Positions 6,022 to 28,640 of a DNA stretch of 30,000 nt are shown here, piece after piece. The stretch lies in the NCBI RefSeq assembly GCF_900107645.1, contig NZ_FNQN01000007.1, positions 162,898-192,897 on the forward strand. Direction: 5' to 3'. A program made the translations under genes and the position numbers. Numbering within the stretch: position 1 is the first letter of the stretch; each line of letters opens with the position of its first letter. Source of the DNA: Desulfuromusa kysingii (GTDB taxonomy: Bacteria; Desulfobacterota; Desulfuromonadia; Desulfuromonadales; Geopsychrobacteraceae). The notes beneath the pieces were generated by a model. That model worked only from the letters and a program-made list of their open reading frames with translations, made no database searches and had not been told where the DNA came from.

Positions 6022-6024
6022 TAT

Positions 6025-7615: not shown

Positions 7616-7903
7616 TCAACCAAATCGATACTCGACCCCGAAAGTCCCGACTGGATACTCCCACTTTTGCAGTATGGTTTTGCCGCAAAGAACTCGGCAG
7701 GTTCCGCACTCCAAGCAACCAGCATAGTCAAACTGAATACTGCCATCATCATCTTTTTTATAGAGACCGGCTGGGCAGGCGGCAATCAATTTGGCAAATT
7801 CAACCGAGTCAGGATTCTCAACCAGTTCAATATGGGCATTATTTTCATCTACAAAAAACTTATTGACACCCAGTTTTACATCGACATTCACTACATTTTT
7901 CAT
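7616..7903 (-). CDS. fixX: Ferredoxin-like protein FixX
   Basis: 95 aa. VNVDVKLGVNKF.VDE...CPAGLYKKDDDGS..FDYAGCLECGTCR...WEYP.GTFGVE.R.G is nearly collinear with E. coli FixX as recalled. A 4-nt overlap with fixC is present. Confidence 0.9.
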   Translation of the reverse strand: MKNVVNVDVKLGVNKFFVDENNAHIELVENPDSVEFAKLIAACPAGLYKKDDDGSIQFDYAGCLECGTCRVLCGKTILQKWEYPVGTFGVEYRFG

Positions 7904-9186
7904 ATCGACCTCACTCCTTTCACACCATCTTTGATCAGATTCATAAATCCTACTTTTTTCAAGTGGGGCAAGAAGGTTTTGCGCAACGGCATTGAAGGTC
8001 CGTTGACTGTAAAGAGATCATTCATCATTGCCGTGACCATTGTCGGATACTCATTGAACATGCGTGGATTATCGAGAAATTCCGGCAGAGCTTTGTAAAG
8101 TTTCATATCCTTCATGACAAAGCTGTTCGTTAGCTCAGTTGTGTAAGTCGACAAGGTTGCCTCACTGAAATCACCATCCTCTTTGGCTTTGATTGCGGCC
8201 TTTGCAGCGGCTGCCCCAGAAGCTATAGCCAAATCCATGCCACGTACTGTGTAACCGACGTTCAGGCAAAGGCCAGCGGCATCGCCGGTAATTATAACTC
8301 CGTCAGCAACCATTTTCGGCAACATTGCATAGCCACCCTCGGGAACAACATGTCCCGAATACTCAACAGACTTCCCTCCTTCGACGAGAGGCTTGACTGC
8401 TGAGTGATTTTTAAAATCCTCCAACATCTGCGGTACGCTCTTATCGGTAGTACCTGCGTTATGTAAACCAAATACAACACCAAGCGAGATACTGTCCTCG
8501 TTGGTATAAATGAAACCTCCACCCATCTGACCTGCCGATGGCATACCAGCAAAGAGCCAGGCAGCTCCTTCATTGTCGGAGCAACCGAAACGATCATTGA
8601 TCTGTTGCTTGCTCAGCTGGATCACTTCCTTGACCCCGACAGCGCAATGGTGTGGTGTTACTTGAGAGACCATACCCAACTTTTCTCCGAGAATAGAGTT
8701 AACGCCATCAGCAAGAATCACCATGTCGGCCTCCATCTCTTCGTCACCAGCAATGATACCGCACACCTTGCCGTCACGAACGATAAGGTCATCGACCCGA
8801 ATACCGGGGATGTAACCTGCTCCCTCATTTTCGGCCTTTTCTGCCAACCATTGATCAAATTTAGAGCGCAGAACAGTATATGATCGACTTTCCAGATCAG
8901 TTGCTACCGGTGTCGTATGCTCCATAGTGGTACAGCGTTCTTCATCGATAAAAGAAATCTTTTCATGCACGATACAACGTTCGATCGGAGCTTCCTCTGC
9001 AAAATTCGGTATGATTTTTTCCAGACTGTGACCATAAAGCCTGCCACCAGTCATATTTTTAGCTCCTGGAAAATTACCCCGATCAATGACAAGGCATTCC
9101 AACCCGGCCTGAGCCAACAAATACGCGCAGGTGGAACCTGCCAGACCGGCACCTACGATAATCGCGTCAAATTTTTCTTCAGACAT
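7900..9186 (-). CDS. fixC: Electron-transfer flavoprotein:quinone oxidoreductase-like FixC
   Basis: 428 aa. N-terminal FAD fold FDAIIVGAGLAGSTCAYLLAQAG. FixC/ETF-QO-like length and its position upstream of fixX support the call. Confidence 0.88.
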   Translation of the reverse strand: MSEEKFDAIIVGAGLAGSTCAYLLAQAGLECLVIDRGNFPGAKNMTGGRLYGHSLEKIIPNFAEEAPIERCIVHEKISFIDEERCTTMEHTTPVATDLESRSYTVLRSKFDQWLAEKAENEGAGYIPGIRVDDLIVRDGKVCGIIAGDEEMEADMVILADGVNSILGEKLGMVSQVTPHHCAVGVKEVIQLSKQQINDRFGCSDNEGAAWLFAGMPSAGQMGGGFIYTNEDSISLGVVFGLHNAGTTDKSVPQMLEDFKNHSAVKPLVEGGKSVEYSGHVVPEGGYAMLPKMVADGVIITGDAAGLCLNVGYTVRGMDLAIASGAAAAKAAIKAKEDGDFSEATLSTYTTELTNSFVMKDMKLYKALPEFLDNPRMFNEYPTMVTAMMNDLFTVNGPSMPLRKTFLPHLKKVGFMNLIKDGVKGVRSI

Positions 9187-9282
9187 ATTTCACCTCGCAA
9201 ACGGCCTGTGGCCAGATTGTTCTTATTCTTTTGAACACTGCCCAGAAAGAAAGCCAATCCTTATCAGGGCAGCGTCATTTAT

Positions 9283-10068
9283 TTACTTATTCTTGAAATC
9301 AGGTGTGCGTTTTTCTTCAAAAGCCTTCATGCCTTCTTTAGAATCTTCTGACTCATAAGCAGCCCTGTCGAGCATACGCTCCAAATCCAGACCGTCATTG
9401 ATCCCCTGATTCAGATAACAGTTAACACCTTGCTTTGTCAGTCGGTTGGCAACAGGAGAATTGGCCGCAATTTTTTGCGCCATTTCCATCGTTCGATCGA
9501 TCAACTCTTCGGCTTTGTAAACTTCCTGAACCAAGCCGATCTGCAAAGCTTTTTCTGCACTGATCTTATCCGCGGTAAACATCATTTTTTTAGCCTGACC
9601 AGCTCCAATAGTACGAACCATCCGCTGCGAACCACCCCAGCCTGCAATCATGCCTAAAGATGTTTCAACCAGCCCCATTTTTGCAGTTTCACTTGCAACC
9701 CTAATATCACATGCAAGAGCAAGTTCAAGCCCGCCACCCAATGCATAACCATTAATGGCGGCAATCGTTGGAATTGGGAAATTTGCAAGTTTGGTTAAAA
9801 TCCCTCTGGCCCAAACATCGACCTCTTCCAGATCATCAATAGTCGGATCGGTAAACTCTCCAACATCAGCTCCGGCGCAGAAAGCCCTGTCACCTTCTCC
9901 GGTAAAAATGGCACAACGCAAGTCGGCTTCTTGCTTAAGTTCGTTCATAACGTCGCGGATATCTCGCAACATCTGACCATTCAAAATGTTGTATTTCGGC
10001 AAGTTCAGTGTCACCAAAGCGATCTTATTATTTACTTCACACTTAATAGTCTCGTATTTATATGCCAT
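9283..10068 (-). CDS. Enoyl-CoA hydratase/isomerase (crotonase) family protein in the CaiD position
   Basis: 261 aa. Crotonase oxyanion-hole motifs FCAGADV and INGYALGGGLELALACDIR, and C-terminal EGMKAFEEKRTPDFKNK. It starts 12 nt after the caiB stop. Carnitinyl-CoA dehydratase function is inferred from context only. Confidence 0.85.
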   Translation of the reverse strand: MAYKYETIKCEVNNKIALVTLNLPKYNILNGQMLRDIRDVMNELKQEADLRCAIFTGEGDRAFCAGADVGEFTDPTIDDLEEVDVWARGILTKLANFPIPTIAAINGYALGGGLELALACDIRVASETAKMGLVETSLGMIAGWGGSQRMVRTIGAGQAKKMMFTADKISAEKALQIGLVQEVYKAEELIDRTMEMAQKIAANSPVANRLTKQGVNCYLNQGINDGLDLERMLDRAAYESEDSKEGMKAFEEKRTPDFKNK

Positions 10069-10080
10069 GGTATTTTCCCT

Positions 10081-11334
10081 TTATTTATCTCGGTCGTTCC
10101 TGAAAATAACGCCTTTGTGATATAGCTCGTTAATTTGTTCTTCGGAGTAGCCCAAATCTTCTAGGATCACATCGTTGTCATAGCCGATATGTGGCATCGA
10201 ACGCCAAATCTTGGTTGGATTGACCTTGAACCGAGGAACCACATTGACTCCTTTATATTTTTCTTCCGTAGTCATCGTGTCCCAATCAACCCACATGTCA
10301 CGTGCTTTATATTGCGGATGCTCGACAACATCTTTGAATGACAATACTGGTGCAGCAGCAACCTTCATAGAATCGAAAATTTCAATATGTTCTTCGTTGG
10401 TTTTAGTTTTGAAATAAGCCTCAACCTTTGACTCAACATAATCTGCTTTGTCCCAGTTCAAATTGATGAAGGAGAAGCCTTCTTTGAAATCACCGACACC
10501 GTAAAGCTCTTCACAACCAATCATATTAAACAGCGTCTTCATCTGCTTTCGACCGAGAATATTGGTGAACAAAAAGCCATTTTTAGTTTTATAAATTCCG
10601 GTTGCCCCCTGAATAGGATCTTTTGCGCCAGGACGTGGGTACATTCGACCATCGTTCAAGTAATCGACCATATTATAGGTCGACAAGCGCATTAAAACTT
10701 CGGTCATGGCAATATCAACACTCTCCCCTTTACCCGTTTCACGGGCCCGGATCAGTGCTGCCAGAGTTGAAGACAAACTAAACATAGCCGTAAACAAGTC
10801 ACCAACATAAGGATAAGCTGGCATCGGCGATTCTGGAGTCCCGTTTTGGCTCATATAACCAGACATCGCTTGGGCAATACCATCGTAACAAGGTCTATCA
10901 ATATAGTTCGGATCTGCGTCCTCCTGGCCATAACCAGAGATACGGGTTATAACAAGCTTGGGATTGATCGCCCATAGGAACTCATCCGTAATCCCTTTAC
11001 GGATGAAACTGGGCCCCTTGCCACCGACAAGAAAAACATCTGCCTCTTTAACGAGTTTTTTGAAAACTGCCATTCCGTCTTCAGAGAAGATATCGAGCGA
11101 CATGGATCGGTCATTTCTATGCTCGTGCTCTGATGGTCGGTAGTTACGGTTAGTATCTCCACCGTTGACATTCTCCAACCAAATAACATCTGCTCCCCAT
11201 TCAGCCATAAAATGGGGACCTAGAGGCCCAGCGACTTCAATAGCAGAGAAAACAACCTTTACGCCTTGCAATACACCAAACTTAGGAGGTCTGTGCTCAG
11301 AATTATCAAAAAACTCCTTCACGTCATTTTTCAT
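10081..11334 (-). CDS. caiB: Family III CoA-transferase, CaiB-like (crotonobetainyl/gamma-butyrobetainyl-CoA:carnitine CoA-transferase)
   Basis: 417 aa. Long collinear similarity to recalled E. coli CaiB: PKFG.L.G.KVVFS.IE.AGP...AEWGA.VIW.EN, ETGKGES.DIAM.EV..R, NP..IWR.MP..G.D. Confidence 0.88.
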   Translation of the reverse strand: MKNDVKEFFDNSEHRPPKFGVLQGVKVVFSAIEVAGPLGPHFMAEWGADVIWLENVNGGDTNRNYRPSEHEHRNDRSMSLDIFSEDGMAVFKKLVKEADVFLVGGKGPSFIRKGITDEFLWAINPKLVITRISGYGQEDADPNYIDRPCYDGIAQAMSGYMSQNGTPESPMPAYPYVGDLFTAMFSLSSTLAALIRARETGKGESVDIAMTEVLMRLSTYNMVDYLNDGRMYPRPGAKDPIQGATGIYKTKNGFLFTNILGRKQMKTLFNMIGCEELYGVGDFKEGFSFINLNWDKADYVESKVEAYFKTKTNEEHIEIFDSMKVAAAPVLSFKDVVEHPQYKARDMWVDWDTMTTEEKYKGVNVVPRFKVNPTKIWRSMPHIGYDNDVILEDLGYSEEQINELYHKGVIFRNDRDK

Positions 11335-11551
11335 AATAATATCCTTTTAATTGGTAGCAAAAACTTAGAGCTGCCGCTTTATAAGTAACCATTTAGACAA
11401 TCTGGTAGTTTATATAAAATGATAGACTGCATGCCTCAAACCGAAGAGCATACCCTTCAGTAACTTCTCACAAAGCGCTGACCTCTTAAGCTCTACCTTT
11501 AAAGTTGAGGGATTCACGAGGAATCCCCCTTCTCGATATTTAAAATTGAAA

Positions 11552-12694
11552 CTATTTGTTCCGGTATTCTTTAACTATGGATCTGCCCAAGGTAAGGATC
11601 ATCATTTCGTCGGTACCACCAGAAATACGGGAAGCACGGATGTCTCTCCAAGCACGGCTAGCACGATGATCACCGCAGATACCTACACCGGCAAGAATCT
11701 GCAGTGCGTCATCAGTAACTTCCTGAGCAGCAACAACGCAGTAGTATTTACACATCGCAGCGTAACCTTTATCTAGGGTGCCATCATCCACCATCTCGGC
11801 ACCGTCATAGATCATGTTGCGCATATTGGTGAGCTTGGCTTTCATATTTGCAAGCTTCAATTGAATCAGCTGTTGGCGTCCGATGGCCTCACCAAACTGT
11901 ACCCGTTGGTTAGCGTATTTGGCAGCATCTTCGAATGCGCAAAGAGCATAGCCATAACAGTAAAGACCCGAAACAACACGTTCCGTGTTGAAATCGTTCT
12001 TTTGCATATCAAACCCTGCACCTTCAGCCCCTAACATGTCGTCTTCTTCTAGTTCGACATTGTCCAGGTAAATTTCGCCTGCACTATTAGTTTTAAGACC
12101 CAATTTTTCCAGACCAGCAATAGTGACACCTTCTGCATTTGTCGGAACAAACCAGTTTGTATATTTGGTTTTGGTTTCCGCATCAAGAGCTGTAACTATC
12201 AGGTAGTCGCTGTAAGTAGCATCGGTACAAAACGTTTTTTGGCCGTTCAGGTAAACCTTACCGTCTTTACGGGTATACGTGGTCTGCATAGCCCCTAGGT
12301 CAGATCCAGCTCCCGGCTCAGTAGCCGCGTTTCCAACCTTGGTCAAACCGGTTTCCATTAATTCCAAAGCAATTTTTTTCTGCTTCTCATTCCCTTCCCT
12401 TAAGATAACGGGATAAGTTGATGAGAACCAGATGCATGCTGCATTACCGCCAAGCCGAAGAACTTCCTCCCAAGCGGCAACAAATGTGACCATTGCATTT
12501 TCTTCAAGTCCGCCGTATTCAACAGGATTAACAATTTGGTGCAAGCCCAATTCAGATAATTCTTTGCAAAATCTTTCGGGAAATTTGTGCTCGTTATCAC
12601 ACTCCTTAAAATAATCATCCCAATTTTCCCTAGTCATCAACTCTCTCATACTTGCAACAATCAAATTTTGTTCTTCAGTTAGTTTTACAGACAT
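11552..12694 (-). CDS. caiA: Acyl-CoA dehydrogenase family flavoprotein, CaiA-like (crotonobetainyl-CoA reductase)
   Basis: 380 aa, the same length as E. coli CaiA. Near-identical blocks: ATEPGAGSD, TTYTRKDGKVYLNG, CAFEDAAKYANQRVQFGEAIGR.QLIQ.K, AAMCKY, SGG.DEM.ILTLGR. AAGGAG RBS is present. Confidence 0.9.
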   Translation of the reverse strand: MSVKLTEEQNLIVASMRELMTRENWDDYFKECDNEHKFPERFCKELSELGLHQIVNPVEYGGLEENAMVTFVAAWEEVLRLGGNAACIWFSSTYPVILREGNEKQKKIALELMETGLTKVGNAATEPGAGSDLGAMQTTYTRKDGKVYLNGQKTFCTDATYSDYLIVTALDAETKTKYTNWFVPTNAEGVTIAGLEKLGLKTNSAGEIYLDNVELEEDDMLGAEGAGFDMQKNDFNTERVVSGLYCYGYALCAFEDAAKYANQRVQFGEAIGRQQLIQLKLANMKAKLTNMRNMIYDGAEMVDDGTLDKGYAAMCKYYCVVAAQEVTDDALQILAGVGICGDHRASRAWRDIRASRISGGTDEMMILTLGRSIVKEYRNK

Positions 12695-12752
12695 CGCGCT
12701 TCTCCTTTTTTCATGTTTTATTACTGTAAATAATCAAGACGACTTACTCATA

Positions 12753-12768
12753 GAGCAATTAAAATGCC
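12753..12768 (-). promoter_or_regulatory. Sigma-54 (-24/-12) promoter for the caiA unit
   Basis: The minus strand reads TGGCATTTTAATTGCT, with correct spacing. The predicted leader to the caiA ATG is about 50 nt. Confidence 0.7.
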
Positions 12769-12834
12769 AACGCCCAACCATCTGATATAAGACGTTTATT
12801 TAAAAACAAAACATATTCCACATGGGTCTCATTG

Positions 12835-12875
12835 TTGACAGTTTCACAAAAGGTGTAAACACCTCTTTGACAATT
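12835..12875. promoter_or_regulatory. Candidate enhancer (UAS) upstream of the caiA promoter
   Basis: TTGACAGTTTCACAAAAGGTGTAAACACCTCTTTGACAATT. It has a near-palindromic core AAAGGTGT-AA-ACACCTCTTT flanked by TTGACA repeats, about 70-110 bp upstream of the -24 element. The motifs recur at the other cai/fix-type promoters. Confidence 0.4.
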
Positions 12876-13199: not shown

Positions 13200-13981
13200 T
13201 CAGAACTTATGGATAAAGGCACTTACACTTTCACACCCAACATCTATGGCCACTTCTTGAACCGGCATCCCCCGCGCCAAGAGACAAAGAGCCTCAATGA
13301 GCCTTGCCTGTTGCCGCCATTGCCGAAAACTCATCCCTGTTCCTTTTGGAAAAAGTCGGGCCAGGGTTCTTTCCGTTGGTCCTGCTATTTTTGCCCAACT
13401 CTCGAGCGTACGGGTATCACAGGGATTTTCAGCAATGCTCCGGGTAATTTTCTGCAGACGACTGTCCGTAGGATGGGGAAGCAGTATCGGAGCCGTATCC
13501 AGAGGCTTAACCTGATCAATAATAACGTCCATCACTCTCGACTCATGACTGTTTTCTGCATAATCGGGAGATATTTCTGTCGCATGCTTGAAAAGTTCCC
13601 TCAATAGAGGGGTGACAGATACAACGCAACATTGGGTAGGGAATTCGGAAAAAAATCAGGCTTAAAATATGCATTACGCATCGCCAGAACACCAACAGCC
13701 TCGATCTTATGAAGAGTGTTCGACGGAATCCAAACCGCGGGATGGTTCGGAATCACCCAGAGACCTGTCACTGTTGTAACTTTCATCACTCCCTCGGAAG
13801 CGTATAAAAACTGTATGGGGATGTGCTGATGATAGGGACAACTTAAACCTTTATGGTAATTAAATGCTTTGGCTAGAACCTTCTGTGGCTTTTCCATAAA
13901 TCGTTCAAGAAAATCATCCGGCTCAACAATTGTCTTCTTCTCTACACCATTCGGCTTCATTTCGATAACAGGACTCACCAA
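13200..13981 (-). pseudogene. AraC/XylS-family regulator (cupin N-domain plus HTH C-domain) interrupted by a frameshift
   Basis: Two overlapping ORFs: the cupin part at 13601-13981 (a likely real ATG is at 13960) and the AraC HTH part at 13200-13604. The N-frame ends ...YLSPLY*. The other frame reads ..PLLRELFKH.., a typical linker of one continuous protein. The break lies at a CCCC run (13609-13612). Confidence 0.7.
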
Positions 13982-16899: not shown

Positions 16900-16915
16900 A
16901 GCAAGACATATTCCA
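16900..16915 (-). promoter_or_regulatory. Probable sigma-54 promoter for the BCCT gene
   Basis: The minus strand reads TGGAATATGTCTTGCT. GG/GC spacing is correct, but the -24 box is weaker (TGGAAT). The leader is about 35 nt. Confidence 0.5.
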
Positions 16916-21278: not shown

Positions 21279-21447
21279 GATAATACCTGCTTTTTTCCCT
21301 TTAATCCGCAGCCTGATGGGAGCAAACGAATCAATAAAGAATTGAATATTCAATCTGACGATCTGTCTTTCAAATGAAGTGCTGACCCAATTTGCATCAA
21401 ATTTGGAAGGGGAATATATTCGGCTTGAACTTGAAAATGTGAACTCC

Positions 21448-21484
21448 GATTTAACCATAGAAACAACATCTCTATGGTTAAATC
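21448..21484. repeat. Perfect 14-bp inverted repeat in the fixB-caiC spacer
   Basis: GATTTAACCATAGA (21448-21461) / TCTATGGTTAAATC (21471-21484) with a 9-nt spacer. No U-tract follows it on the minus strand. Confidence 0.6.
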
Positions 21485-21528
21485 AGAAAATTTCGTCCGT
21501 GATCCCTTTGCCAGCTTCAGACCAGAAG

Positions 21529-22443
21529 CTACCTAAGCTTCGCGATCAACTTAGGTAGAATTTCGTAAACATCTCCGACGAGACCGAGATCACAAGACTT
21601 AAAAATAGGGGAGTTTTCGTCCTTATTGATGGCAACAATAGTTTTTGCCTGATTGATACCGACCATATGCTGGACCTGCCCAGAAGTCGCCAGAGAAATG
21701 ACAAGTTCCGGCTTCAGCATCATACCGGTTATACCGATATAAACAGCCTTCGGCAGCCAGCCGTTGTTTTCAGCCACAGGGCGGGAACAACCCAGATCAG
21801 CACCCAGCAGAGTTGCCAGTTCACGGCACATTTCAACATCGGCCTCTTCTTTGAATCCACGCCCCATGTCAACTACTTTCTTAGCAATAGCGAGATTGGA
21901 TACAATTTCTTGCTTAGCCTGAGTTTCAATTTTTTTGATTTTGTTGCTTGGTACAACATCAACAAAATGTGTATCTGAAACTGAAGAAACAGCAGGATCA
22001 GTAATCTCGAAGACGCCTGCGCCACTGGTAATAACAGCTGTATTACTGGTAAGTTTTTCACTCCTGAACGCTGCACCACCATAAACCATTCTTTGAGTGG
22101 TTTTATCTTCAAGTGAAGAGATCCCGGAAACAACGCAGGTATCAAGGTAAACAGCAAGCTTGCCAGCCAACAACTTACCCCGCACAGAGTTATTCACCAA
22201 AACCAAGTCCGCATTATTTGATTGCAGTTTTTCAGAAATCATCTTAGCGGAATCTTCGATCATTGTTGACGCATCACACCTATAAACATAAACGTTTTTT
22301 GCCCCATATGAAGCCGCCAGATCCTTTAACTCTTCGTCAAATATAATAATAGAAAATTGTGTGGATAGATTAGATGCACCACTCGCAAGCTCTTTAATGC
22401 TCATTTCGGTATCAGCAATTATAAACGTATTGACATATGACAT
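21529..22443 (-). CDS. fixB: Electron transfer flavoprotein alpha subunit-like FixB
   Basis: 304 aa. The C-terminal FAD-binding half has the ETF-alpha signature ...AVYIGITGMMLKPELVISLATSGQVQHMVG...IVAINKD.... It starts 12 nt after fixA, with an AGGAGG RBS. Confidence 0.88.
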   Translation of the reverse strand: MSYVNTFIIADTEMSIKELASGASNLSTQFSIIIFDEELKDLAASYGAKNVYVYRCDASTMIEDSAKMISEKLQSNNADLVLVNNSVRGKLLAGKLAVYLDTCVVSGISSLEDKTTQRMVYGGAAFRSEKLTSNTAVITSGAGVFEITDPAVSSVSDTHFVDVVPSNKIKKIETQAKQEIVSNLAIAKKVVDMGRGFKEEADVEMCRELATLLGADLGCSRPVAENNGWLPKAVYIGITGMMLKPELVISLATSGQVQHMVGINQAKTIVAINKDENSPIFKSCDLGLVGDVYEILPKLIAKLR

Positions 22444-22455
22444 GATATGTACCTC

Positions 22456-23205
22456 CTATTTGTTCAAAAATTGGATAAGGGCATCAACCATTTCATCGGT
22501 ATCGCCTTTAACAATTTGCAGTTTCCGATCTTTTTGCTCTGGAGCCAAATCGTTCAGAACTTCGGTACTCCCAGCTATTCCTGAGAGATCGACAGATAAT
22601 TCATTTACCTTTTTTTTACCTGCAGACATGATGTCTCTCATGCCCGGAATTGTCGGTACGTTAATTTCGGAGGTAACAGAAATTACGGCAGGCAAGGGAA
22701 TTTCAAGAACTTCAACTTCACCCTCTAGGACTCTCTCGACTCTAATGATTCCTTCTTGGAGGTTGATATCATTAATCTCATTGACAACTGGTAAATCCAT
22801 GATAGCACCAACCTGATTACCAACCTGTTGAGAATACAAGTCAGAAGAACCAGTTCCAAAAATCAACAAATCAAACTCATTCATTGTTTTCACAGCTTTA
22901 ACAATGGCTTTTGCAGTTACTAACGAATCGTTAAACTGTTGATCGGTTATGACCACATTTAATTCATCGGCGCCACGAGACAAAATGTCTTTCCTGATTT
23001 TCGTTTTACTCAATGCGTCTCCGCCAATAGTCAGGACCTTCATACTGCCACCGGTTTCTTTTGCCAATTGCTTCCCAGCTTCCAAAGCGCTCAAATCATA
23101 TTGACCAATTTTCCACTGAGCTTTATCGAATGACAGTTCCTGATTAGGCAAAACCGCGATATCTTGCTCTTCTGGAACAACCTTAATACACGCAATAATG
23201 TTCAT
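22456..23205 (-). CDS. fixA: Electron transfer flavoprotein beta subunit-like FixA
   Basis: 249 aa. MNIIACIKVVPEEQDIAV...GQYDLSALEAG...ILSRGADEL..V...FDLLIFGTGSSDLYSQQVG...IPLPAVISV is collinear with recalled E. coli FixA. Confidence 0.9.
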   Translation of the reverse strand: MNIIACIKVVPEEQDIAVLPNQELSFDKAQWKIGQYDLSALEAGKQLAKETGGSMKVLTIGGDALSKTKIRKDILSRGADELNVVITDQQFNDSLVTAKAIVKAVKTMNEFDLLIFGTGSSDLYSQQVGNQVGAIMDLPVVNEINDINLQEGIIRVERVLEGEVEVLEIPLPAVISVTSEINVPTIPGMRDIMSAGKKKVNELSVDLSGIAGSTEVLNDLAPEQKDRKLQIVKGDTDEMVDALIQFLNK

Positions 23206-23276: not shown

Positions 23277-23292
23277 AGCAATCAGTGTGCCA
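23277..23292 (-). promoter_or_regulatory. Sigma-54 (-24/-12) promoter for fixA-fixB(-caiC)
   Basis: The minus strand reads TGGCACACTGATTGCT, a perfect consensus match. The leader to the fixA ATG is about 60 nt. Confidence 0.75.
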
Positions 23293-23368
23293 TTGCGCGT
23301 GAGCATCACAACTAGCTGTTTTTAAATCATTTTTTTTCAGAACAGACATCATCGTGTAAACTGGCATG

Positions 23369-23401
23369 CGACAATTGACAATAGAGAACTAGCAATTGTC
23401 G
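23369..23401. promoter_or_regulatory. Inverted repeat, candidate enhancer site upstream of the fixA promoter
   Basis: CGACAATTG (23369-23377) -N15- CAATTGTCG (23393-23401), a perfect 9-bp inverted repeat 77-125 bp upstream of the -24 box. TGACAAT follows at 23376-23382. Confidence 0.5.
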
Positions 23402-23571: not shown

Positions 23572-24174
23572 TTAAACTTTTTTTGGCTTCGAGGCGTCAG
23601 GTTTAGACATTTTCTCTGCGACAATAAATCCATAGACGACAAAGCAGAGCGATAGTATTTGCTGAAATACCAGCAAACGCTTGCCCTGAATCATCATCAA
23701 CAGTGCAATGCTGCCATTCATCAAAATAAAGCAGACCCAGCCATTGAGATTGTCTTTAGCTAATAGACTACTACCAACAAAAAAGGTGAATAAGATGGTC
23801 AACTCTAAGAATTGAGAAAAAGAATGAAGACCGCCAAAATCATAAAGGCTACAGGAGATACCGAAAACTAAGAAGAGATAAGTTGAGTACGTAATAACAC
23901 GAGAAAAAGTCTTACTTGTTGCATCTGGTCCCTTTATGGAAGCATAAAGTCCTAAGTACATCGTAGGGAGACTGCCAACCTCGATCGAAGCAGCGATCCA
24001 ACTATGGCTCCCAATATACAACACAGTCCAAGCAGGAACCCCCATCATATAAACAGACCAGCCTATAATCCTTAGACGCCGTTTTTTATTGTATTTTTTC
24101 CCTTCAGCTAACGCAAAAAAAACTTTACTTAAAAGGTAAAAAAGCCCTCCCCAAACTTGCAATATCAAATCCAT
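23572..24174 (-). CDS. Integral membrane protein of unknown function, possibly a PnuC-like vitamin transporter
   Basis: 200 aa with about 6-7 hydrophobic helices. The two-halves pattern and the segment LNGWVCFILMNGSIALLMMIQG....Q.ILSLCFVVYGF recall PnuC-family repeats. The resemblance is judged by eye only. Confidence 0.6.
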   Translation of the reverse strand: MDLILQVWGGLFYLLSKVFFALAEGKKYNKKRRLRIIGWSVYMMGVPAWTVLYIGSHSWIAASIEVGSLPTMYLGLYASIKGPDATSKTFSRVITYSTYLFLVFGISCSLYDFGGLHSFSQFLELTILFTFFVGSSLLAKDNLNGWVCFILMNGSIALLMMIQGKRLLVFQQILSLCFVVYGFIVAEKMSKPDASKPKKV

Positions 24175-24572
24175 AATAAATTCCTGAAATTGACTCTATC
24201 GCACCTCCCCACAACGGTTACAATATGATCCGGCTAAGGGGGGCCCACTCATGATCAAACTCATCTAGAGTGACAGAAATCACATTCAGCATAAAATGTT
24301 CCAATTCACATCCCAATAATTCTATAAAAGCAGGTGGGAGTCTGATTGGTTCAGAATTAGAGAAGAAATGAAAAATAAAAGGCAAGGACACCTAACAAAC
24401 TCAATGCCAACCCGCAACTGGCGATCGGCATTGAGTTAATCTTCAATCATATTGGAAAAGACACACATAAGATTTTTTCAATTAATGGATTGTCTAGGCA
24501 GACTGCGGCACAACCAATGAAATATCTCTAACATTCACTTCATACCAACAAAAACAGAACGGAAACCGAATT

Positions 24573-25371
24573 CTATTTATTCTTAAACACTGGGATTCTT
24601 TTTTCGGAAAAAGCCCTTACTCCTTCGGCAGTATCTTCTGAATCAAAAGTCAACCGTGTATAGGTTGTCTCTAAATGATAACTTCCATCCTCAGTCATTC
24701 CACTTGCAGCTGAATCCAACAATGCCTTCAAGCACCGCACGCCAATAGGAGCTTTCGCAGCAATGGAGCCAGCGACCTCCATTGCTCTGGAAAGCAAATT
24801 TTCCTCAGCCACTACTTCCTGAACGATATCCCACTCTTTGGCGACCTCAGAAGTAATTCTCTCACCCGTATAAAGCCACTTTTTGATCTTAGGTATTGAA
24901 AATCTTTGACCTAGAACAAGCGTTGCCCCCCCAATTCGGAAACATTCCAAAATTGATTTCTGGAAACGCATATTTCGTATTATCTGCAGCAATGGCGTAG
25001 TCGCACGTTAAAGCGAGAACCATTCCACCACCCAATACATAGCCGTTGAGTGCCGCTATCATTGGGACAGGCAGGCTACTCATCTTTTTCAGAGCAGCCC
25101 TTGCAATTTCATTCTGTTTTACAGCTTCATCGGACGTTTTTGGCCCTTCCCTGACATCATCACCAGCAGAAAAAGCTTTCTCTACCGCAGAAGACAACAC
25201 AACCACACGCACTTCATCCCTACCGACCAACCCTTTAAGATCTTCACTTATTTCGCTAAATTCTGCAAAGACACCTAAGGTAAAGAGGTTCAGTGGTGGG
25301 CGATTAAAAACCAAATGAGCTATTTTATTCTCAATGTCACAATACATAAATTGTTTTTCAATTTTCATCAT
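24573..25371 (-). pseudogene. Second crotonase-family enoyl-CoA hydratase, frame broken at a G7 run
   Basis: The N-part (track ORF 24889-25380) carries FSAGDDV and LNGYVLGGGMVLALTCDY...FPEINFGMFPNWGG. The C-part (24573-24992) continues in another frame with ..ATLVLGQRFSIPKIKKWLYTGERI...EGVRAFSEKRIPVFKNK. The join falls exactly at the C7 (+) / G7 (-) run at 24926-24932. The likely start is ATG 25371, preceded by GAGGTGAAGGGA. Confidence 0.8.
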
Positions 25372-25390
25372 TCCCTTCACCTCTACTCAT

Positions 25391-25422
25391 AAAAAAAGAC
25401 CACAACATGCGTAGTGGTCTTT
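25391..25422 (-). terminator. Rho-independent terminator after the MaoC gene
   Basis: The minus strand reads AAAGACCAC-(10 nt)-GTGGTCTTT followed by TTTTTTTA. It lies between the MaoC stop (25438) and the crotonase start. Confidence 0.6.
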
Positions 25423-25437
25423 GATTTGATTCGACGA

Positions 25438-25863
25438 TCAATTATCTGTCCTTGCTAGGCAAACAGCATCCCCAACAGCAACAACGTCTCCATCTTGATT
25501 TATACCCTTAGTGCCAATAAACAGCCTGTTTCTTTCAACATTTATTTCATTGACTGTGCCCGTGACTGTCACAGTGTCACCAGCATAAACCGGTGCAGTA
25601 TATTTAATGCTGAGTCTTGCATCAATGCCACCAGCGACAAGCTTTGAAAGCATCGCAGAAACCATACAATCGAGATAAACACCGTGTGCAATGCATTTGC
25701 CATAAATTGTTGTTTTTGCATATTCTGGATCCATATGAATCGGATCATGATCATCAATTGCATCCGCAAATGCGTGCAACGTCTTCTGCGTGATTTCCCT
25801 TACAACGCTGGCAGTATCTCCTACCTTAAATTGATCAATTGTTTTACCTAATTTTTCAGCCAT
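25438..25863 (-). CDS. MaoC-like (R)-specific enoyl-CoA hydratase/dehydratase (hotdog fold)
   Basis: 141 aa. FADAIDDHDPIHMDPEYAK.T.YGK.IAHG is the MaoC/PhaJ hydratase motif (D..P.H....A.......IAHG). GAGGAG RBS is present. Confidence 0.85.
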   Translation of the reverse strand: MAEKLGKTIDQFKVGDTASVVREITQKTLHAFADAIDDHDPIHMDPEYAKTTIYGKCIAHGVYLDCMVSAMLSKLVAGGIDARLSIKYTAPVYAGDTVTVTGTVNEINVERNRLFIGTKGINQDGDVVAVGDAVCLARTDN

Positions 25864-25908
25864 GGCTCTCTCCTCATAGGAACATATTTTTTTGATATTC
25901 TACAAATA

Positions 25909-25924
25909 AGCAAGGGACATACCA
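25909..25924 (-). promoter_or_regulatory. Probable sigma-54 promoter for the MaoC gene
   Basis: The minus strand reads TGGTATGTCCCTTGCT, with correct GG/GC spacing. The leader is about 36 nt. Confidence 0.55.
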
Positions 25925-26014
25925 AAAAAAACAGCCATATAGGGTCACTTGAAATCAACCTGTAACACTTCGCTAGCAAGAGTTTTACAGTTTCGTAAAG
26001 TCACTTCTGACAAT

Positions 26015-26632
26015 CTATTTTACAAAGGAATTATTTCTTCTTTCATAATCAACTGTCGTTACTGGGCCATGGCCTGTATAGAGTTTTGTGTCTGGTGGAA
26101 ATTTAAATATCTTACTCTTTATCGTCGTCATAAGCGTTTCATAATCACCACCGTTAAAATCGGATCGACCCACAGAGCCGGAAAAAATAACATCCCCTAC
26201 GAAAGCAAGGGTATGATCGGGAAAGTGCAGGGTCAAACTTCCCGGAGTATGCCCTGGAGTGGCTATCACTTCACACTTTTCACCAAGGAACTCATACATA
26301 CCCGGGTCAAATGGTTCATAATCCACCATTCCACAAGACTGTGAATACATGCACTCCTTCCATGTGTCGACTTCTTCCTTAATCAAATAACCATCGGCTG
26401 GATTAATGTAAATTTTTGCCCCAGTAAGTTTTGAGAATGCAGTAGCAGCGTAAAAGTGATCGAGATGAATATGAGTGATCAGGATGTGTGTCACCTGGAG
26501 ATCTTCATTTCTTATAATATTGGCGATTTCCATAGAGTAGTCGCCTGGATCAATAAGAACAGCTTTCCCTTTATTTGAGATGAGATAGCAATTTGCTTCA
26601 TAAGCGCTGAGCTGAAAGGGACGAATTTTCAT
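26015..26632 (-). CDS. MBL-fold metallo-hydrolase (glyoxalase II / YcbL-like)
   Basis: 205 aa. Metal motif THIHLDH, TPGHTPGS, GDVIFSGSVGRSD and GHG. AAGGTGA RBS is present. Confidence 0.85.
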   Translation of the reverse strand: MKIRPFQLSAYEANCYLISNKGKAVLIDPGDYSMEIANIIRNEDLQVTHILITHIHLDHFYAATAFSKLTGAKIYINPADGYLIKEEVDTWKECMYSQSCGMVDYEPFDPGMYEFLGEKCEVIATPGHTPGSLTLHFPDHTLAFVGDVIFSGSVGRSDFNGGDYETLMTTIKSKIFKFPPDTKLYTGHGPVTTVDYERRNNSFVK

Positions 26633-26803
26633 AAAATCACCTTTTCCCTTAATCGTGTAACTTGAATTTATTAACGAAATACTGAAGGCTGAGAAGAGAT
26701 ACGAGGACTAACTTCTCAAGATTTTCATGCTATGAACCAGTATCAAGCATGGTCGTACATTTCATTGAGAGCGACATTCCTTCCTCTTATCAACCCCACA
26801 ACC

Positions 26804-26848
26804 ACAAAAAAAGCCCCTAAGAATAATTTATCTCAGGGGCTTTTTTCA
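26804..26848 (-). terminator. Rho-independent (bidirectional-looking) terminator after the CaiT-like gene
   Basis: AAGCCCCT...AGGGGCTT hairpin (26811-26842), flanked by an A-run on the + strand (a T-run on the minus strand) and a T-run on the + strand. It lies about 20 nt downstream of the stop at 26863. Confidence 0.7.
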
Positions 26849-26862
26849 TTTTTTACAAACCC

Positions 26863-28407
26863 TTATTCTGTATCATCACCCCAATAGGTTTTAATATCCC
26901 GGAAGAAAGCACCAATAATTAATAGCGAAATGACAAATGCGGGGTAACCTGCCCACACCATCGCGTTCTTAACTGTTTGTATTCCGCCAATATAGAGGAA
27001 ACCGATCGACAGGATACAAGTAACAACGCACCAGAACAGCCGGGTGAATTTTGAAGGGTCCTCATTAGCCGGAAGATTCGGTTGAGATACTAGAGCATTG
27101 CCGTAAACAGCACTCTGGATAAAAGTCCATGCTGAAACAAACGCATAGAACAGGAGAATGATCATAATCAGATTCGAGAACGGAAGTTGGTCAATAACAT
27201 AGGTAATAGCAGAATAAGCATCTTGATCAACCAGAGCTTTATATTGTGCTGGGTCACCAAGATAAGTATCAAGGGCAAAATTACCCATTGTCCAGAAAAA
27301 GATTGCGCAACCTGCTGAACTCGCAAGCACAATACCAAGGACACATTGGCGGACGGTACGCCCCTTACAAAGCTTGCTGTAAAATTGCCCACCACCCAAA
27401 ACAGAAGCAATGAAGAAAAGAGCATAAAAGATCGTCCAAGATTGTGACCACTGACTGGTATTCAAACTCATAGGAATAAAATTTTGTATCCACAGCGCTG
27501 TTGAAGCCACAATATTGTTACAATATTGGCTTGTATTTCCGACTAAAAAGATAAAAAAAGCGACACCGAAGAACATAAATAGCCTTGCGTTACTGATAAG
27601 AGTCATCCCCTTTTTCAAGCCTGTATACATAGCAATAGCCATACAAATAACAACGACTAATAAAATTAAAACATCAAGTGAAAGCGTATGCTTCACACCG
27701 AAAACTTTGCTGAAAAATGTTCCAACGATCGGCACACTAACAGCCAATGAGTAGCCTGCATTGGAGAAAATAATGCCCACTAAAAATACGCAGTCGATGA
27801 CTTTACCAAGTTTCCCATTAGCTCTTTTTGCGCCGATCAAACTTTCACACGCAGCGCTAACCCGTGAAGTGTCTTTTTTCTTAACAAAAAGTAAAAAGGC
27901 TAAAGCAATCCCGATAATGGCATAAGACGAAAAGCCTAGAATACCCCAGTGGAATACCGGGTAAGCCATTGACCACTTCACCGCCTCTTCACTAAACGGC
28001 GTAATTCCAAATGGAGGTCCTGAGATATAGTAGTAAAATTCAATAAACACCCAATAGACAATACTGGCTGAGGAACTATAAGCAAAAAGCATTGCATAAA
28101 AAGAAAATGTGCTGCCATCTGGTTTCTCATCACCAAAGCGTTTATTGGCATATTTCCCAAATGCAAAATAAAGACACAACCCAACACAGGAAAACTCAAA
28201 TACGAGGAGCATCCAGCCAAAATTCTGGTTCATAAAATGGAAGGTATCAGTCATAAAAATATTCATGCCTTCAGGATTCGTAAATAGCGCTCCTGCAAAA
28301 CCAAGAACGATAAGAATTGCAGGAATACTTACCCAATAGTCGATACTACGATCGACTCCATCTTTACTTGCTGCCTTCTTCACTGACATATCCATTTCTT
28401 TCTGCAT
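26863..28407 (-). CDS. caiT: BCCT-family transporter, CaiT-like, with a divergent Trp-box
   Basis: 514 aa. FIEFYYYISGPPFGITP and VFHWG closely resemble recalled E. coli CaiT (IEIYYYISTPPFGLEP, LFHWG). The TM8 box reads SWTIFYALFFIAS....CKGRTVRQ. AAGGAG RBS is present. The symbol is assigned by similarity, so the substrate is uncertain. Confidence 0.85.
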   Translation of the reverse strand: MQKEMDMSVKKAASKDGVDRSIDYWVSIPAILIVLGFAGALFTNPEGMNIFMTDTFHFMNQNFGWMLLVFEFSCVGLCLYFAFGKYANKRFGDEKPDGSTFSFYAMLFAYSSSASIVYWVFIEFYYYISGPPFGITPFSEEAVKWSMAYPVFHWGILGFSSYAIIGIALAFLLFVKKKDTSRVSAACESLIGAKRANGKLGKVIDCVFLVGIIFSNAGYSLAVSVPIVGTFFSKVFGVKHTLSLDVLILLVVVICMAIAMYTGLKKGMTLISNARLFMFFGVAFFIFLVGNTSQYCNNIVASTALWIQNFIPMSLNTSQWSQSWTIFYALFFIASVLGGGQFYSKLCKGRTVRQCVLGIVLASSAGCAIFFWTMGNFALDTYLGDPAQYKALVDQDAYSAITYVIDQLPFSNLIMIILLFYAFVSAWTFIQSAVYGNALVSQPNLPANEDPSKFTRLFWCVVTCILSIGFLYIGGIQTVKNAMVWAGYPAFVISLLIIGAFFRDIKTYWGDDTE

Positions 28408-28624
28408 TACGTTCTCCTTTATTTATGATCGACTTAAATGAGAATCTCTCCGTTTAAGACAGAGAGATCGGACAGAACAATTCATCACGCATAAGTCACA
28501 AAAACTTACAGATATATAAACAAATGCCTATTCAATGACGTTGTTCTGATAGTCGTAAAAGACCTTAAAACCGCCTGAAAGATCTAAGTCGACACCCTCT
28601 TAAGGCATTCGACTTATCAGGATT

Positions 28625-28640
28625 AGCAGAATGCATGCCA
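28625..28640 (-). promoter_or_regulatory. Probable sigma-54 promoter for the CaiT-like gene
   Basis: The minus strand reads TGGCATGCATTCTGCT, with correct spacing and a -12 box of CTGCT. It implies a long leader of about 200 nt. Confidence 0.5.

Follow-up and report, generated by a model that had tools for sequence, protein, structure and literature searches.

The window analysed here is a 30,000-nucleotide stretch of DNA from the anaerobe Desulfuromusa kysingii, in which cai/fix-like genes are scattered over several transcription units and a dedicated sigma-54 activator gene adjoins them. Gene families were assigned by Pfam and NCBIfam searches and by BLASTP comparison with the E. coli K-12 proteins; the gene identities, promoter boxes, palindromes and conservation patterns reported below were established by computation. 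All cai/fix-like genes, their companion genes and the boxes described are on the minus strand. Unit 1 begins with a caiA-type acyl-CoA dehydrogenase/reductase gene (11552-12694), the product of which matched the NCBIfam crotonobetainyl-CoA dehydrogenase model with 496 bits, which is below the cut-off of 540. It shares 51% identity with E. coli CaiA, 94% with its orthologue in locus L001 and 85% with that of Pseudodesulfovibrio tunisiensis. For the caiB-type class III CoA-transferase (10081-11334), the score obtained with the NCBIfam L-carnitine CoA-transferase model (476 bits) exceeded the cut-off of 413. This protein is 45% identical to E. coli CaiB and its D179 aligns with E. coli Asp169, which we take to be the catalytic residue. 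The crotonase (enoyl-CoA hydratase) encoded at 9283-10068 (PF00378, E=4e-61) is the candidate for the CaiD role. It shares 32% identity with E. coli CaiD and 66-82% with its orthologues elsewhere, and its top NCBIfam matches are generic hydratases. The distal genes of the unit are fixC (7900-9186; PRK10015, 615 bits, above cut-off; 60% identity to E. coli FixC) and fixX (7616-7903; NCBIfam FixX, 145 bits; 63% identity to E. coli FixX), and their products form a predicted electron input of the ETF-quinone-oxidoreductase type.

The electron-transfer flavoprotein genes fixA (22456-23205) and fixB (21529-22443) make up unit 3, and the encoded proteins share 45% and 39% identity with E. coli FixA and FixB, respectively. 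Next to them lies a caiC-type betaine-CoA ligase gene (19716-21278, open reading frame to 21458). Its product is 42% identical to E. coli CaiC and scored 653 bits with the NCBIfam crotonobetaine/carnitine-CoA ligase model (cut-off 651). From the alignment, the true start is probably at 21278 (ATGACTGTC), which is conserved and has a ribosome-binding site. Two BCCT transporters are also encoded. BCCT1 (unit 2, 15285-16856; PF02028, E=5e-132) is an uptake-type, betaine-like carrier. Its nearest NCBIfam model is a glycine-betaine BCCT, it lacks the Arg found at position 262 of E. coli CaiT, and its orthologues in L001, L035 and L038 are 74-80% identical. The second transporter (unit 5, 26863-28407) is CaiT-like. 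Its best match was the NCBIfam L-carnitine/gamma-butyrobetaine antiporter model, with 379 bits and thus below the cut-off of 541; identity is 29% to E. coli CaiT and 81-87% to the orthologues in L035 and L038. It differs from CaiT at four of the nine positions compared, which we take to be substrate- or ion-site residues: E111, W142, Y150 and R262 are kept and W147F, W323F, W324F and M331G are changed. The first-pass annotation had named homologues of caiA, caiB, a crotonase, fixC, fixX, fixA, fixB, caiC and two BCCT transporters at these places, and the family searches agree. It had also noted the lack of a caiF or caiE homologue, and tblastn found neither gene in the window.

Five additional genes are kept with the cluster, yet play no part in the pathway of E. 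coli. A MaoC-type (R)-specific enoyl-CoA hydratase gene (25438-25863; PF01575, E=4e-16; L001 orthologue 87% identical) opens unit 4. A second crotonase gene, ech2 (24573-25380), is interrupted by a single surplus G within a G7 run (near 24925-24931), which breaks it into two open reading frames; it is intact in L001, L036, L038 and L039. The gene at 26015-26632 encodes a glyoxalase-II-like hydrolase of the metallo-beta-lactamase fold (MBL; PF00753, E=1.5e-27), possibly a thioesterase, which is conserved in L001, L035, L036, L038 and L040. The remaining two encode a nitroreductase-family flavoprotein (17375-17908; PF00881, E=2.5e-22; orthologues in L001, L036, L038 and L042) and a PnuC-like membrane protein (23572-24174). 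The PF04973 match of the latter (E=3e-5) is below the cut-off, and its orthologues in L001 and L038 share 53% and 57% identity.

On the plus strand, a sigma-54 enhancer-binding protein is encoded at 18190-19683 (PF00158, E=2e-63), where an activator gene had been proposed. The protein consists of a PAS-like sensor (residues ~17-142), an AAA+ core (167-332, with lid to 417) and a Fis-type HTH (~458-486), and it is without a receiver domain. Profile matches to the terminal domains were HTH_8 (E=3e-4) and PAS_9 (E=0.056). In the AF2 model (pLDDT 84), residues 17-142 adopt a PAS-like fold and the AAA+ core reaches a TM of 0.9 to NtrC1, FleQ and PspF. The signature loop reads GAYTDA, not GAFTGA. 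A Desulfuromusa kysingii protein that carries the annotation 'arginine utilization regulatory protein' has the identical sequence (100%). The window does not contain rpoN, and it holds a second activator gene (1695-3215) that faces a peroxiredoxin gene with its own box.

Five -24/-12 boxes with exact GG-N10-GC spacing had been quoted by the first-pass annotation. All five exist, but the caiA box lies at 12754-12769 rather than at 12753-12768. This unit 1 box (TGGCATTTTAATTGCT) is located 60 nt before the caiA ATG and is kept 5' of caiA in L001 (TGGCATTTTATTTGCT), L035 (TGGCATGCTGATTGCT) and L038 (TGGCACCCTCCTTGCT). The unit 2 box (16900-16915, TGGAATATGTCTTGCT) precedes the BCCT1 ATG by 44 nt; L001 has TGGAACATATTTTGCT at the equivalent position, and L035 and L038 have TGGTGT...TTGCT variants. 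In unit 3, the box (23277-23292, TGGCACACTGATTGCT) is 72 nt before the fixA ATG and is kept in L001, L036, L038, L039, L040 and L042. The unit 4 box (25909-25924, TGGTATGTCCCTTGCT), 46 nt before the maoC ATG, has counterparts in L036 (TGGTATTTATCTTGCT), L038 (CGGCACGGGGTTTGCA) and L001 (TGGTATGGGATATGCA). For unit 5, the box (28625-28640, TGGCATGCATTCTGCT) is 218 nt before the CaiT-like ATG, and boxes also precede the orthologues in L035, L038 and L039, where the leaders measure 112-320 nt and are unconserved in sequence. A further sigma-54-like box 5' of the PnuC-like gene (24288-24303, TGGAACATTTTATGCT), which was not among the five, is doubtful as a promoter: there is no palindrome 5' of it in the window, and it has no counterpart in L001, where the PnuC-like gene follows ech2 after 89 nt. 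No convincing box was found within the window for caiC, MBL and the nitroreductase. The nitroreductase 5' region has only TGGTGTTAACGATGCA (8/12) and L001 and L036 carry AGGCAY-AATAA-TTGCT; for MBL, L001 (TGGCAGATAAATTGCT) and L036 (TGGCAAATAAATTGCT) have boxes and in the window only a decayed copy (TCGTTAATAAATTCAA) is left.

For comparison, we used seven other loci (L001, L035, L036/37, L038, L039, L040 and L042) from Geopsychrobacteraceae, Pseudodesulfovibrio tunisiensis and Clostridia-like contigs, which represent at least three lineages. In all seven, activator orthologues (44-72% identity) lie within cai/fix-like clusters. The unit order is shuffled between loci, and the caiA-, fixA-, maoC/MBL- and BCCT-type units usually retain a TGGCAY-N5-TTGCT box, a profile compiled from 31 candidate boxes in 7 loci. 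As judged from these loci, the predicted sigma-54 wiring of cai/fix-like genes is conserved across distant anaerobes; we found no paper describing such wiring. Boxes at the unit starts exceed chance. In 457 kb of unrelated loci, boxes scoring at least 9/12 occurred at 0.49 per kb on both strands, and thus 0.49 boxes are predicted for the sense strand of the 2 kb 5' of the eight unit starts; six were seen (P ~1e-5), a 12-fold excess of correctly placed and oriented boxes. Matches to TGG-N9-TGCT numbered 10 (4.2 expected). Boxes were not enriched in the E. coli cai/fix region (6 in 12 kb), and sigma-70-like promoters showed no excess (36 vs 43 expected).

A palindrome that the first-pass annotation had not seen, TGTMAA-N7-TTKACA, precedes the caiA, fixA, maoC and caiT boxes by 63-96 nt and is a candidate activator site. 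In unit 1 (12835-12872), a perfect palindrome (TGTAAACACCTCTTTGACA, 12854-12872) is accompanied by a half-site (AAACTGTCAA, 12835-12844), and perfect copies are present in L001 and L038 at the same fixed distance of 83-85 nt from the box. The unit 3 site (23355-23380) comprises three half-sites, TTGTCAA-TTGTCGC-N7-TTTACA, and this layout and its offset of 63-64 nt are identical in L001, L036 and L038 despite diverged flanks. In unit 4 (25984-26012), TTGTCAGAAGTGACTTTACG is combined with the half-site AAACTGTAAA, and L038 shares layout and offset (70-71 nt). In unit 5 (28736-28778), TGTCATATCAGTGCTTACA in opposite orientation is joined by the half-site AAACTGTAAA (28769-28778). Farther upstream of its box, at 193-213 nt, BCCT1 has two weak palindrome-like sites (17108-17146), each of which has 2 mismatches. 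Perfect palindromes occur ~170 nt upstream of the box of the L038 BCCT1 orthologue and 95 nt upstream of that of the L036 BCCT. We counted 8 perfect copies in ~174 kb (~0.1 expected), and sites with up to two mismatches were 13 times denser in promoter-upstream zones, but both figures are optimistic, as the same sequences served to define the pattern and to count it.

That the -24/-12 matches are fortuitous, with sigma-70 transcribing the units and the activator regulating something else, appears very improbable to us. A short degenerate motif does arise by chance at the background rate given above, six coding-region matches lie in the window, and the palindrome halves resemble the sigma-70 -35 hexamer TTGACA or equal it. 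Such a reading would have to accommodate the 12-fold excess, the persistence of boxes at orthologous unit starts in the seven comparison loci, where flanks have diverged and the order is shuffled, the missing excess of sigma-70-like promoters and an activator gene embedded in the cluster in all loci examined. A smaller regulon deserves more weight, although we consider it the less probable arrangement. Here, the activator would own only the caiA, fixA, maoC and caiT units, and BCCT1, PnuC-like, nitroreductase and MBL genes would depend on sigma-70 promoters or on a different enhancer-binding protein. The weak and distant BCCT1 palindromes, a -24 element of TGGAA or TGGTG instead of TGGCA, the unconserved PnuC-like box without palindrome, the lack of good MBL and nitroreductase boxes in the window and the second activator gene nearby all point in this direction. 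However, the BCCT boxes of L038 and L036 have perfect palindromes, L001 and L036 have clear MBL and nitroreductase boxes, and the second activator faces a peroxiredoxin gene with its own box.

The regulation may also be as described and the substrate a different onium or quaternary ammonium compound from anoxic marine sediment, which we regard as rather unlikely. Candidates would be D-carnitine, gamma-butyrobetaine used oxidatively, a longer-chain betaine or a sulfonium analogue, with MBL, MaoC, ech2 and nitroreductase catalysing core steps. The low crotonase identity to CaiD, the CaiA and CaiT scores below the NCBIfam equivalog cut-offs and the altered aromatic box of the transporter (W147F, W323F, W324F, M331G) would fit such a substrate. 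The same holds for MBL, MaoC, ech2 and nitroreductase, which accompany the cluster in most loci under sigma-54 boxes of their own. In addition, a distant activator paralogue (35%) adjoins an MttB-type quaternary-amine methyltransferase cluster, so that the wider clade would serve several betaines. On the other hand, CaiB and CaiC exceed the equivalog cut-offs for carnitine enzymes, CaiA (51%) and FixC/FixX (60-63%) are close to the E. coli proteins, and the set for conversion of carnitine to gamma-butyrobetaine is complete, including a CaiT-like carrier with Arg262.

Taken together, we consider it quite probable that a CoA-dependent betaine pathway of the carnitine/crotonobetaine type is encoded in the window as a sigma-54 regulon. 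The switch for this reduction pathway is most likely a one-component PAS/AAA+/HTH activator; a putative ligand and substrate are proposed below. The core idea of the first-pass annotation was that cai/fix chemistry is governed by a sigma-54 circuit with several promoters and a ligand-sensing activator of its own. It is supported by the boxes at orthologous unit starts in the seven other loci, the activator gene inside every cluster, its PAS-like N-terminal domain and the palindrome at fixed offset. The activator would bind TGTMAA-N7-TTKACA, with weaker and more distant sites at BCCT1, and once its sensor is occupied, presumably by the betaine or its CoA ester, it would remodel the sigma-54 holoenzyme at each box. 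Unit 1 (caiA-caiB-crotonase-fixC-fixX), unit 2 (uptake-type BCCT), unit 3 (fixA-fixB, perhaps with caiC), unit 4 (maoC-ech2) and unit 5 (CaiT-like exchanger) would be co-activated. The betaine, which we suppose to be carnitine/crotonobetaine and not some related onium compound, would be imported and thio-esterified by CaiC and then by CaiB cycling. Its CoA ester would be dehydrated by the crotonase to the enoyl-CoA, which CaiA would reduce with electrons delivered by FixABCX, and the product would leave by exchange via the CaiT-like carrier. Such a flux would be reductive and may serve as a respiration-like electron sink. In Desulfuromusa kysingii, the cai/fix chemistry thus appears to be placed under a sigma-54 circuit, whereas in E. 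coli it is controlled by CaiF, CRP and FNR.

The ORF listing together with Pfam and NCBIfam bore out the gene list of the first-pass annotation, which had proposed caiA, caiB, caiC, a crotonase, fixABCX, two BCCT transporters and a sigma-54 activator. The genes fixX, fixC, crotonase, caiB and caiA (7616–12694, minus strand) were assigned from ORFs, Pfam and NCBIfam, and the two family databases also placed the remaining genes. Here, we found a betaine-type BCCT transporter (BCCT1, 15285–16856), a nitroreductase-family gene (17375–17908), caiC, fixB and fixA (19716–23205, with the probable caiC start at 21278), a PnuC-like gene (23572–24174), a second crotonase termed ech2 in two ORFs (24573–25380), maoC (25438–25863), a metallo-beta-lactamase (MBL)-fold hydrolase (26015–26632), and a CaiT-like BCCT carrier (26863–28407), all on the minus strand. 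The activator gene lies in the middle of the cluster on the plus strand (18190–19683). It had also been claimed that caiE and caiF are lacking, and tblastn searches of the window found neither gene (best E-value above 1).

When the proteins were compared with those of the E. coli K-12 cai/fix region, we obtained amino acid identities of 51% for CaiA, 45% for CaiB, 42% for CaiC, 29% for CaiT, 32% for CaiD, 45% for FixA, 39% for FixB, 60% for FixC, and 63% for FixX. CaiB (476 bits, cut-off 413) and CaiC (653 bits, cut-off 651) passed the NCBIfam equivalog cut-offs, whereas CaiA (496 bits, cut-off 540) and the CaiT model (379 bits, cut-off 541) missed them. All four FixABCX proteins are present; FixA scored 234 bits on PRK03359 (cut-off 219), FixC passed PRK10015, and the E. 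coli Ydi paralogues match the window proteins about equally well. The crotonase is unlike CaiD, and its top NCBIfam models are generic. Since CaiA and CaiT stay below their cut-offs and the crotonase is generic, the gene content is cai/fix-like rather than that of a full member of the enterobacterial family. In the alignment, the CaiT-like carrier keeps the arginine equivalent to Arg262 of E. coli CaiT, a residue that takes the place of a sodium site in the CaiT structures, and BCCT1 lacks it. At four of nine compared positions, which we take to be substrate- or ion-site residues, the CaiT-like carrier differs from CaiT.

Relatives of the activator were gathered by a genome scan, a protein search, contig look-ups and a metagenome scan; the latter, carried out with an alignment of the sensor domain, yielded one new locus (L042). 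Orthologues were found in a Geopsychrobacteraceae MAG (L001, 72% identical activator), on the metagenome contigs L038 (69%) and L036/L037 (67%), on the chromosome of Pseudodesulfovibrio tunisiensis (L035, CP094380; 61%), and on the Clostridia-like contigs L039 (52%), L042 (52%) and L040 (44%). Without exception, the activator gene lies within the cluster at these loci, and each cluster encodes a caiA-type dehydrogenase, one or more CaiB-type transferases, a crotonase, a CaiC-type ligase, ETF genes and BCCT transporters. MBL, maoC, ech2 and the nitroreductase gene are also present in most of them. Comparison of the window with the P. tunisiensis locus indicated 89% identity for CaiB, 85% for CaiA and 81% for the CaiT-like carrier, but only 61% for the activator. 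Within the window, the G+C content drops from about 0.49–0.52 at 1–3 kb to 0.36–0.42 at 17–29 kb. This drop and the high degree of enzyme identity between Desulfuromonadales and Desulfovibrionales suggest a lateral transfer of the cluster.

All five sigma-54 boxes (−24/−12 elements) quoted in the first-pass annotation were recovered with GG-N10-GC spacing, although the caiA box had been placed one base off and actually covers positions 12754–12769. A sixth box (24288–24303) precedes the PnuC-like gene. These six boxes have the exact spacing, score 9–11 of 12 and are located 44–218 nt ahead of start codons. For quantification, every GG-N10-GC site was scored against TGGCACG-N4-TTGCW with a threshold of at least 9 of 12. 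The window contains 14 such sites, 8 of which fall into the 22% of non-coding sequence, and 7 of those 8 lie ahead of a gene in the proper orientation. A genomic background rate had been suggested as a check, and 457 kb of unrelated loci gave 0.49 sites per kb (both strands summed). On the sense strand before the eight unit starts (2 kb in total) we counted 6 boxes compared with 0.49 expected (Poisson P of about 1e-5). In the E. coli cai/fix region, which served as control, the box frequency equaled exactly the background. The cluster showed no excess of sigma-70-like promoters (36 compared with 43 expected). The rpoN gene is located outside the 30-kb window.

Alignment of 31 boxes from seven loci gave the consensus TGGCAY-N5-TTGCT (T29 G31 G31 C23 A26 … T26 T30 G31 C31 T28). 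The caiA, fixA, maoC/MBL and BCCT units retain their boxes in L001, L035, L036, L038, L039, L040 and L042. Although the units are arranged and oriented differently from locus to locus, the boxes still precede the caiA-, fixA-, maoC/MBL- and BCCT-type units. Such shifting of units as blocks, each with a box of its own, is what a multi-promoter regulon predicts. Not all boxes are equally well preserved. The one before the PnuC-like gene lacks an associated palindrome, is missing from L001 and is not conserved, and the nitroreductase box is good in L001 and L036 and poor in the window. Upstream of MBL (26633–26700, minus strand) the window reads TCGTTAATAAATTCAA, where L001 carries the box TGGCAGATAAATTGCT and L036 the box TGGCAAATAAATTGCT; the window sequence resembles a sigma-54 promoter that has decayed. 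A good box is also present outside the cluster. A second sigma-54 activator gene (1695–3215, minus strand), which is NorR-like (388 bits, cut-off 476), and a peroxiredoxin gene (PrxU/AhpC-like, 3606–4301, plus strand) are oriented divergently, and the latter is preceded at a distance of 214 nt by the box TGGCATAGCCATTGCT (3377–3392, plus strand). The two genes resemble a small sigma-54 unit of their own that would respond to peroxide or NO stress.

Inspection of the unit upstream regions indicated that the half-sites TGTCAA and TTTACA recur. In the window, TTGTCR-N9-TTAC is matched exactly at four places (0.13 expected), all of them upstream of boxes (caiA, fixA, maoC, caiT), and AAACTGTMAA at three (0.23 expected), which fall into three of these four regions. 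We generalized the half-site patterns to the palindrome TGTMAA-N7-TTKACA as candidate activator site. Eight perfect copies were present in about 174 kb, compared with about 0.1 predicted from base composition, but the pattern was derived from the very sequences on which it was counted and its halves equal the −35 hexamer. Perfect palindromes are located 85 nt from the caiA box in the window (12854–12872), 83 nt from it in L001 (6554) and 85 nt in L038 (3359), 95 nt from a BCCT box in L036 (9618) and 106 nt from the box of an acyl-CoA dehydrogenase gene in L039 (6499). The remaining copies lie upstream of a BCCT gene in L038 (18878), upstream of the activator gene in L039 (8710) and between caiT and the activator gene in L042 (9921). 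If up to two mismatches are allowed, the density of sites within 240 nt upstream of boxes is 13-fold that found elsewhere. In the window, L001, L036 and L038, the fixA promoters share TGTCAAC followed by TGTCnn-N7-TTKACA, and the offset between site and box is an identical 63–64 nt in all four, with diverged flanks. Such fixed offsets across genomes are a stronger argument for the candidate operator than the counts. IHF-like motifs (WATCAR-N4-TTR) between site and box were seen in front of caiA in the window and in L038 and in front of fixA in L001; with matches at no more than these three promoters of all loci, a claim of IHF sites was dropped.

The activator itself is 100% identical to a D. 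kysingii protein labeled "arginine utilization regulatory protein". It carries a sigma-54 interaction domain (PF00158, E = 2.4e-63, residues 167–332), and the aligned activators do not vary in the Walker A and B motifs (GETGTGKE and FLDELH). An AF2 model built from a 44-sequence alignment (pLDDT 84) places the AAA+ core on NtrC1, FleQ, LuxO and PspF with a TM-score of about 0.9 and an rmsd of about 2 Å. At the C-terminus of the protein lies the Fis-type helix-turn-helix, for which HTH_8 gave E = 2.9e-4 and 20.9 bits (cut-off 22), and the SRQHL motif is conserved. A receiver domain is lacking. The N-terminal 165 residues gave a weak PAS_9 match (E = 0.056, model positions 4–97 of 103), and this region aligns with PF13426-positive PAS domains of RocR-like relatives. 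Its modeled order of a helix, two strands, short helices, three strands and a long helix (pLDDT 77–93) fits a PAS fold.

The loop that contacts sigma-54 (residues about 241–246) reads GAYTDA in the window protein and not GAFTGA. Among the deltaproteobacterial orthologues we found GAYTDA, GSYTDA (P. tunisiensis) and GAFTDA (orthologue P0005), whereas the Clostridia-type orthologues have GAYTGA and the RocR-like relatives GAFTGA. We know of no characterized activator with Asp at this position of GAFTGA. Conservation of the loop within the clade suggests that it may be functional. The top NCBIfam model for the activator was PrdR, but an identity as PrdR or RocR was ruled out, since the PrdR score of 316 bits is far below the cut-off of 795. 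The protein is only 37–40% identical to RocR-like proteins. In addition, the activator gene has cai/fix context in 8 of 8 loci and is never accompanied by roc or prd genes, so that the existing annotation is probably wrong and the arginine label probably a transfer error. A more distant PAS activator (35% identical to that of the window) is encoded in a Desulforhopalus MAG (L003, 2350–9098), where it adjoins genes for an MttB-family methyltransferase, a BCCT transporter, an amine oxidase, a corrinoid protein and a pterin methyltransferase. The L003 genes form a quaternary-amine demethylation cluster and represent another quaternary-amine pathway, so that the wider clade of activators seems to be associated with the breakdown of betaines.

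Several non-coding and interrupted stretches of the cluster were inspected. A riboswitch in the caiT leader was rejected, since the leaders (112–320 nt) were unconserved when four loci were aligned and Rfam remained blank across the window. The fixB-caiC spacer (21279–21528, minus strand) comprises 250 nt, and its counterparts in L001, L036 and L038 measure 150–276 nt. It contains neither a sigma-54 box nor sequence conservation besides the caiC start, and in L036 and L038 G+C-rich hairpins are found within it; the spacer may be an attenuator, an internal promoter or a processing site. A general terminator scan was uninformative (20 found, 16 expected). A strong hairpin followed by a T-run is located after caiT (about 26800–26850), which suggests that MBL is not read through from caiT. 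The split of ech2 (minus strand) goes back to one extra G in a G7 run (24925–24931). The gene is intact in L001, L036, L038 and L039, and L001 has GGGGT at the G7 position; the extra G may be a sequencing error in the homopolymer, or else the gene has recently become a pseudogene. The stretch that separates the caiA unit from BCCT1 contains an AraC-family regulator gene in two ORFs (13200–13981, minus strand) and an MFS transporter gene (14034–15200, plus strand). L001 lacks both at this place and has a caiA-BCCT gap of 420 nt, and the AraC/MFS stretch is probably an insertion remnant. The window MFS protein has no similarity to the MFS protein encoded after caiC in L038 and was therefore not counted as cluster member. 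Directly downstream of fixX, ribBA and ribH follow in the same orientation (5557–7263, minus strand), and ribBA is adjacent in L001, too. Rfam indicated no FMN riboswitch in the window.

Genes, boxes, palindromes and their conservation are backed by the computations. As a mechanism, we propose that the putative PAS domain would recognize a betaine of the carnitine type or the CoA ester of this betaine and that the palindrome-bound activator would open sigma-54 complexes at at least five units simultaneously. The betaine would be imported, activated by CaiC and subsequently cycled by CaiB. The crotonase would dehydrate the activated betaine, CaiA would reduce the enoyl-CoA with electrons arriving via FixABCX, and the CaiT-like carrier would exchange the product out. 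More speculatively, MaoC and Ech2 might interconvert two 3-hydroxy stereoisomers through the enoyl-CoA, and the glyoxalase-II-like MBL protein might act as thioesterase.

A broader scenario, which we consider possible rather than probable, is that a horizontally mobile sigma-54 cassette under an unrecognized betaine-sensing PAS activator, mis-annotated as RocR, controls the reduction of carnitine-type betaines across Desulfuromonadota, Desulfovibrionales and Clostridia. In this scenario, the extra components of the cassette (the MBL-fold putative thioesterase, MaoC with the second crotonase, the nitroreductase-family protein and the PnuC-like carrier) would extend the pathway, for instance to D-carnitine or another betaine, and the Clostridia-type members could switch the production of gamma-butyrobetaine that feeds TMA formation. 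TMA and TMAO arise by a route that begins with the anaerobic conversion of carnitine to gamma-butyrobetaine, and to our knowledge the regulation of this conversion is known solely from Enterobacteria (CaiF, CRP, FNR). If the proposed sigma-54 circuit holds true, a second and unrelated control logic would operate on the same chemistry in Clostridia-like bacteria as well as in sulfur and sulfate reducers of sediments. Moreover, carnitine-type betaines would have a candidate small-molecule sensor, with the operator TGTMAA-N7-TTKACA as a possible biosensor, and the annotation of a protein family now filed under arginine utilization would be corrected. The circuit also hints at crotonobetaine-type electron sinks in marine anaerobes and at conserved accessory enzymes.

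Control of catabolic operons by sigma-54 activators is well known, and so is the cai/fix chemistry. What is new is the pairing of the two, the activator subfamily, its candidate operator and the extra conserved genes. In the open-access literature, searches that combined sigma-54 with carnitine, caiA, BCCT or MttB, Desulfuromusa with carnitine, or crotonobetaine with sulfate reducers returned nothing relevant, and the circuit is absent from two surveys of sigma-54 regulons.

A related system is the bbu/gbu cluster of Emergencia timonensis, which converts gamma-butyrobetaine to TMA and comprises a BbuA-type TMA-eliminating flavoenzyme, the paired transferases BbuB and BbuC, the ferredoxin BbuD and the thioesterase BbuF (PMC8364193). 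It is substrate-inducible, with co-induction of riboflavin genes (PMC8364193), and the bbu/gbu papers describe no regulator for it. Compared by description, the two systems share a flavoenzyme of the acyl-CoA dehydrogenase family, a CaiB-type CoA-transferase, a BCCT transporter and a thioesterase-type function, but the window has one CoA-transferase and bbu/gbu two. The 51% identity of the window flavoenzyme to CaiA and the presence of FixABCX argue for reduction over TMA elimination. Two Clostridia-like contigs encode additional enzymes. In L039, a second acyl-CoA dehydrogenase (5170–6312, 28% identical to CaiA) follows immediately behind a sigma-54 box, and L040 has two tandem CoA-transferases (33–2458, 23–30% identical to CaiB); the layout of these enzymes resembles that of bbu/gbu.

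RocR-type PAS sigma-54 activators control arginine and ornithine catabolism in Firmicutes and include PrdR of Clostridioides. The window activator shares their domain order (putative PAS, AAA+, Fis-type helix-turn-helix) and, like them, has no receiver domain, but its putative PAS domain is too diverged for Pfam and its loop reads GAYTDA. The promoters are built like those of the NifA/NtrC type, with a TGGCAY-N5-TTGCT box and a dyad-symmetric site about 60–100 nt (up to about 200 nt) upstream. However, the upstream site of NifA is TGT-N10-ACA, and the window dyad differs in sequence from both the NifA and the NtrC sites. With the caiTABCDE-fixABCX system of E. coli and Proteus, the window, which comes from a strictly anaerobic sulfur reducer, has in common homologues of CaiA, CaiB, CaiC and FixABCX, a CaiT-like carrier and a crotonase, and the chemistry is presumably alike, namely a cycle of CoA esters in which an ETF system supplies the electrons for reduction of the enoyl-CoA. 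In contrast to the enterobacterial system, it lacks CaiE and CaiF, its crotonase is unlike CaiD, and it carries as conserved extras the MBL hydrolase, MaoC, the second crotonase, the nitroreductase, the PnuC-like protein and a second BCCT transporter. Whereas E. coli has two divergent sigma-70 operons under CaiF, CRP and FNR, the genes of the window are distributed over at least five units with sigma-54 boxes, and their proposed regulator is an enhancer-binding protein with a putative PAS domain and an AAA+ core.
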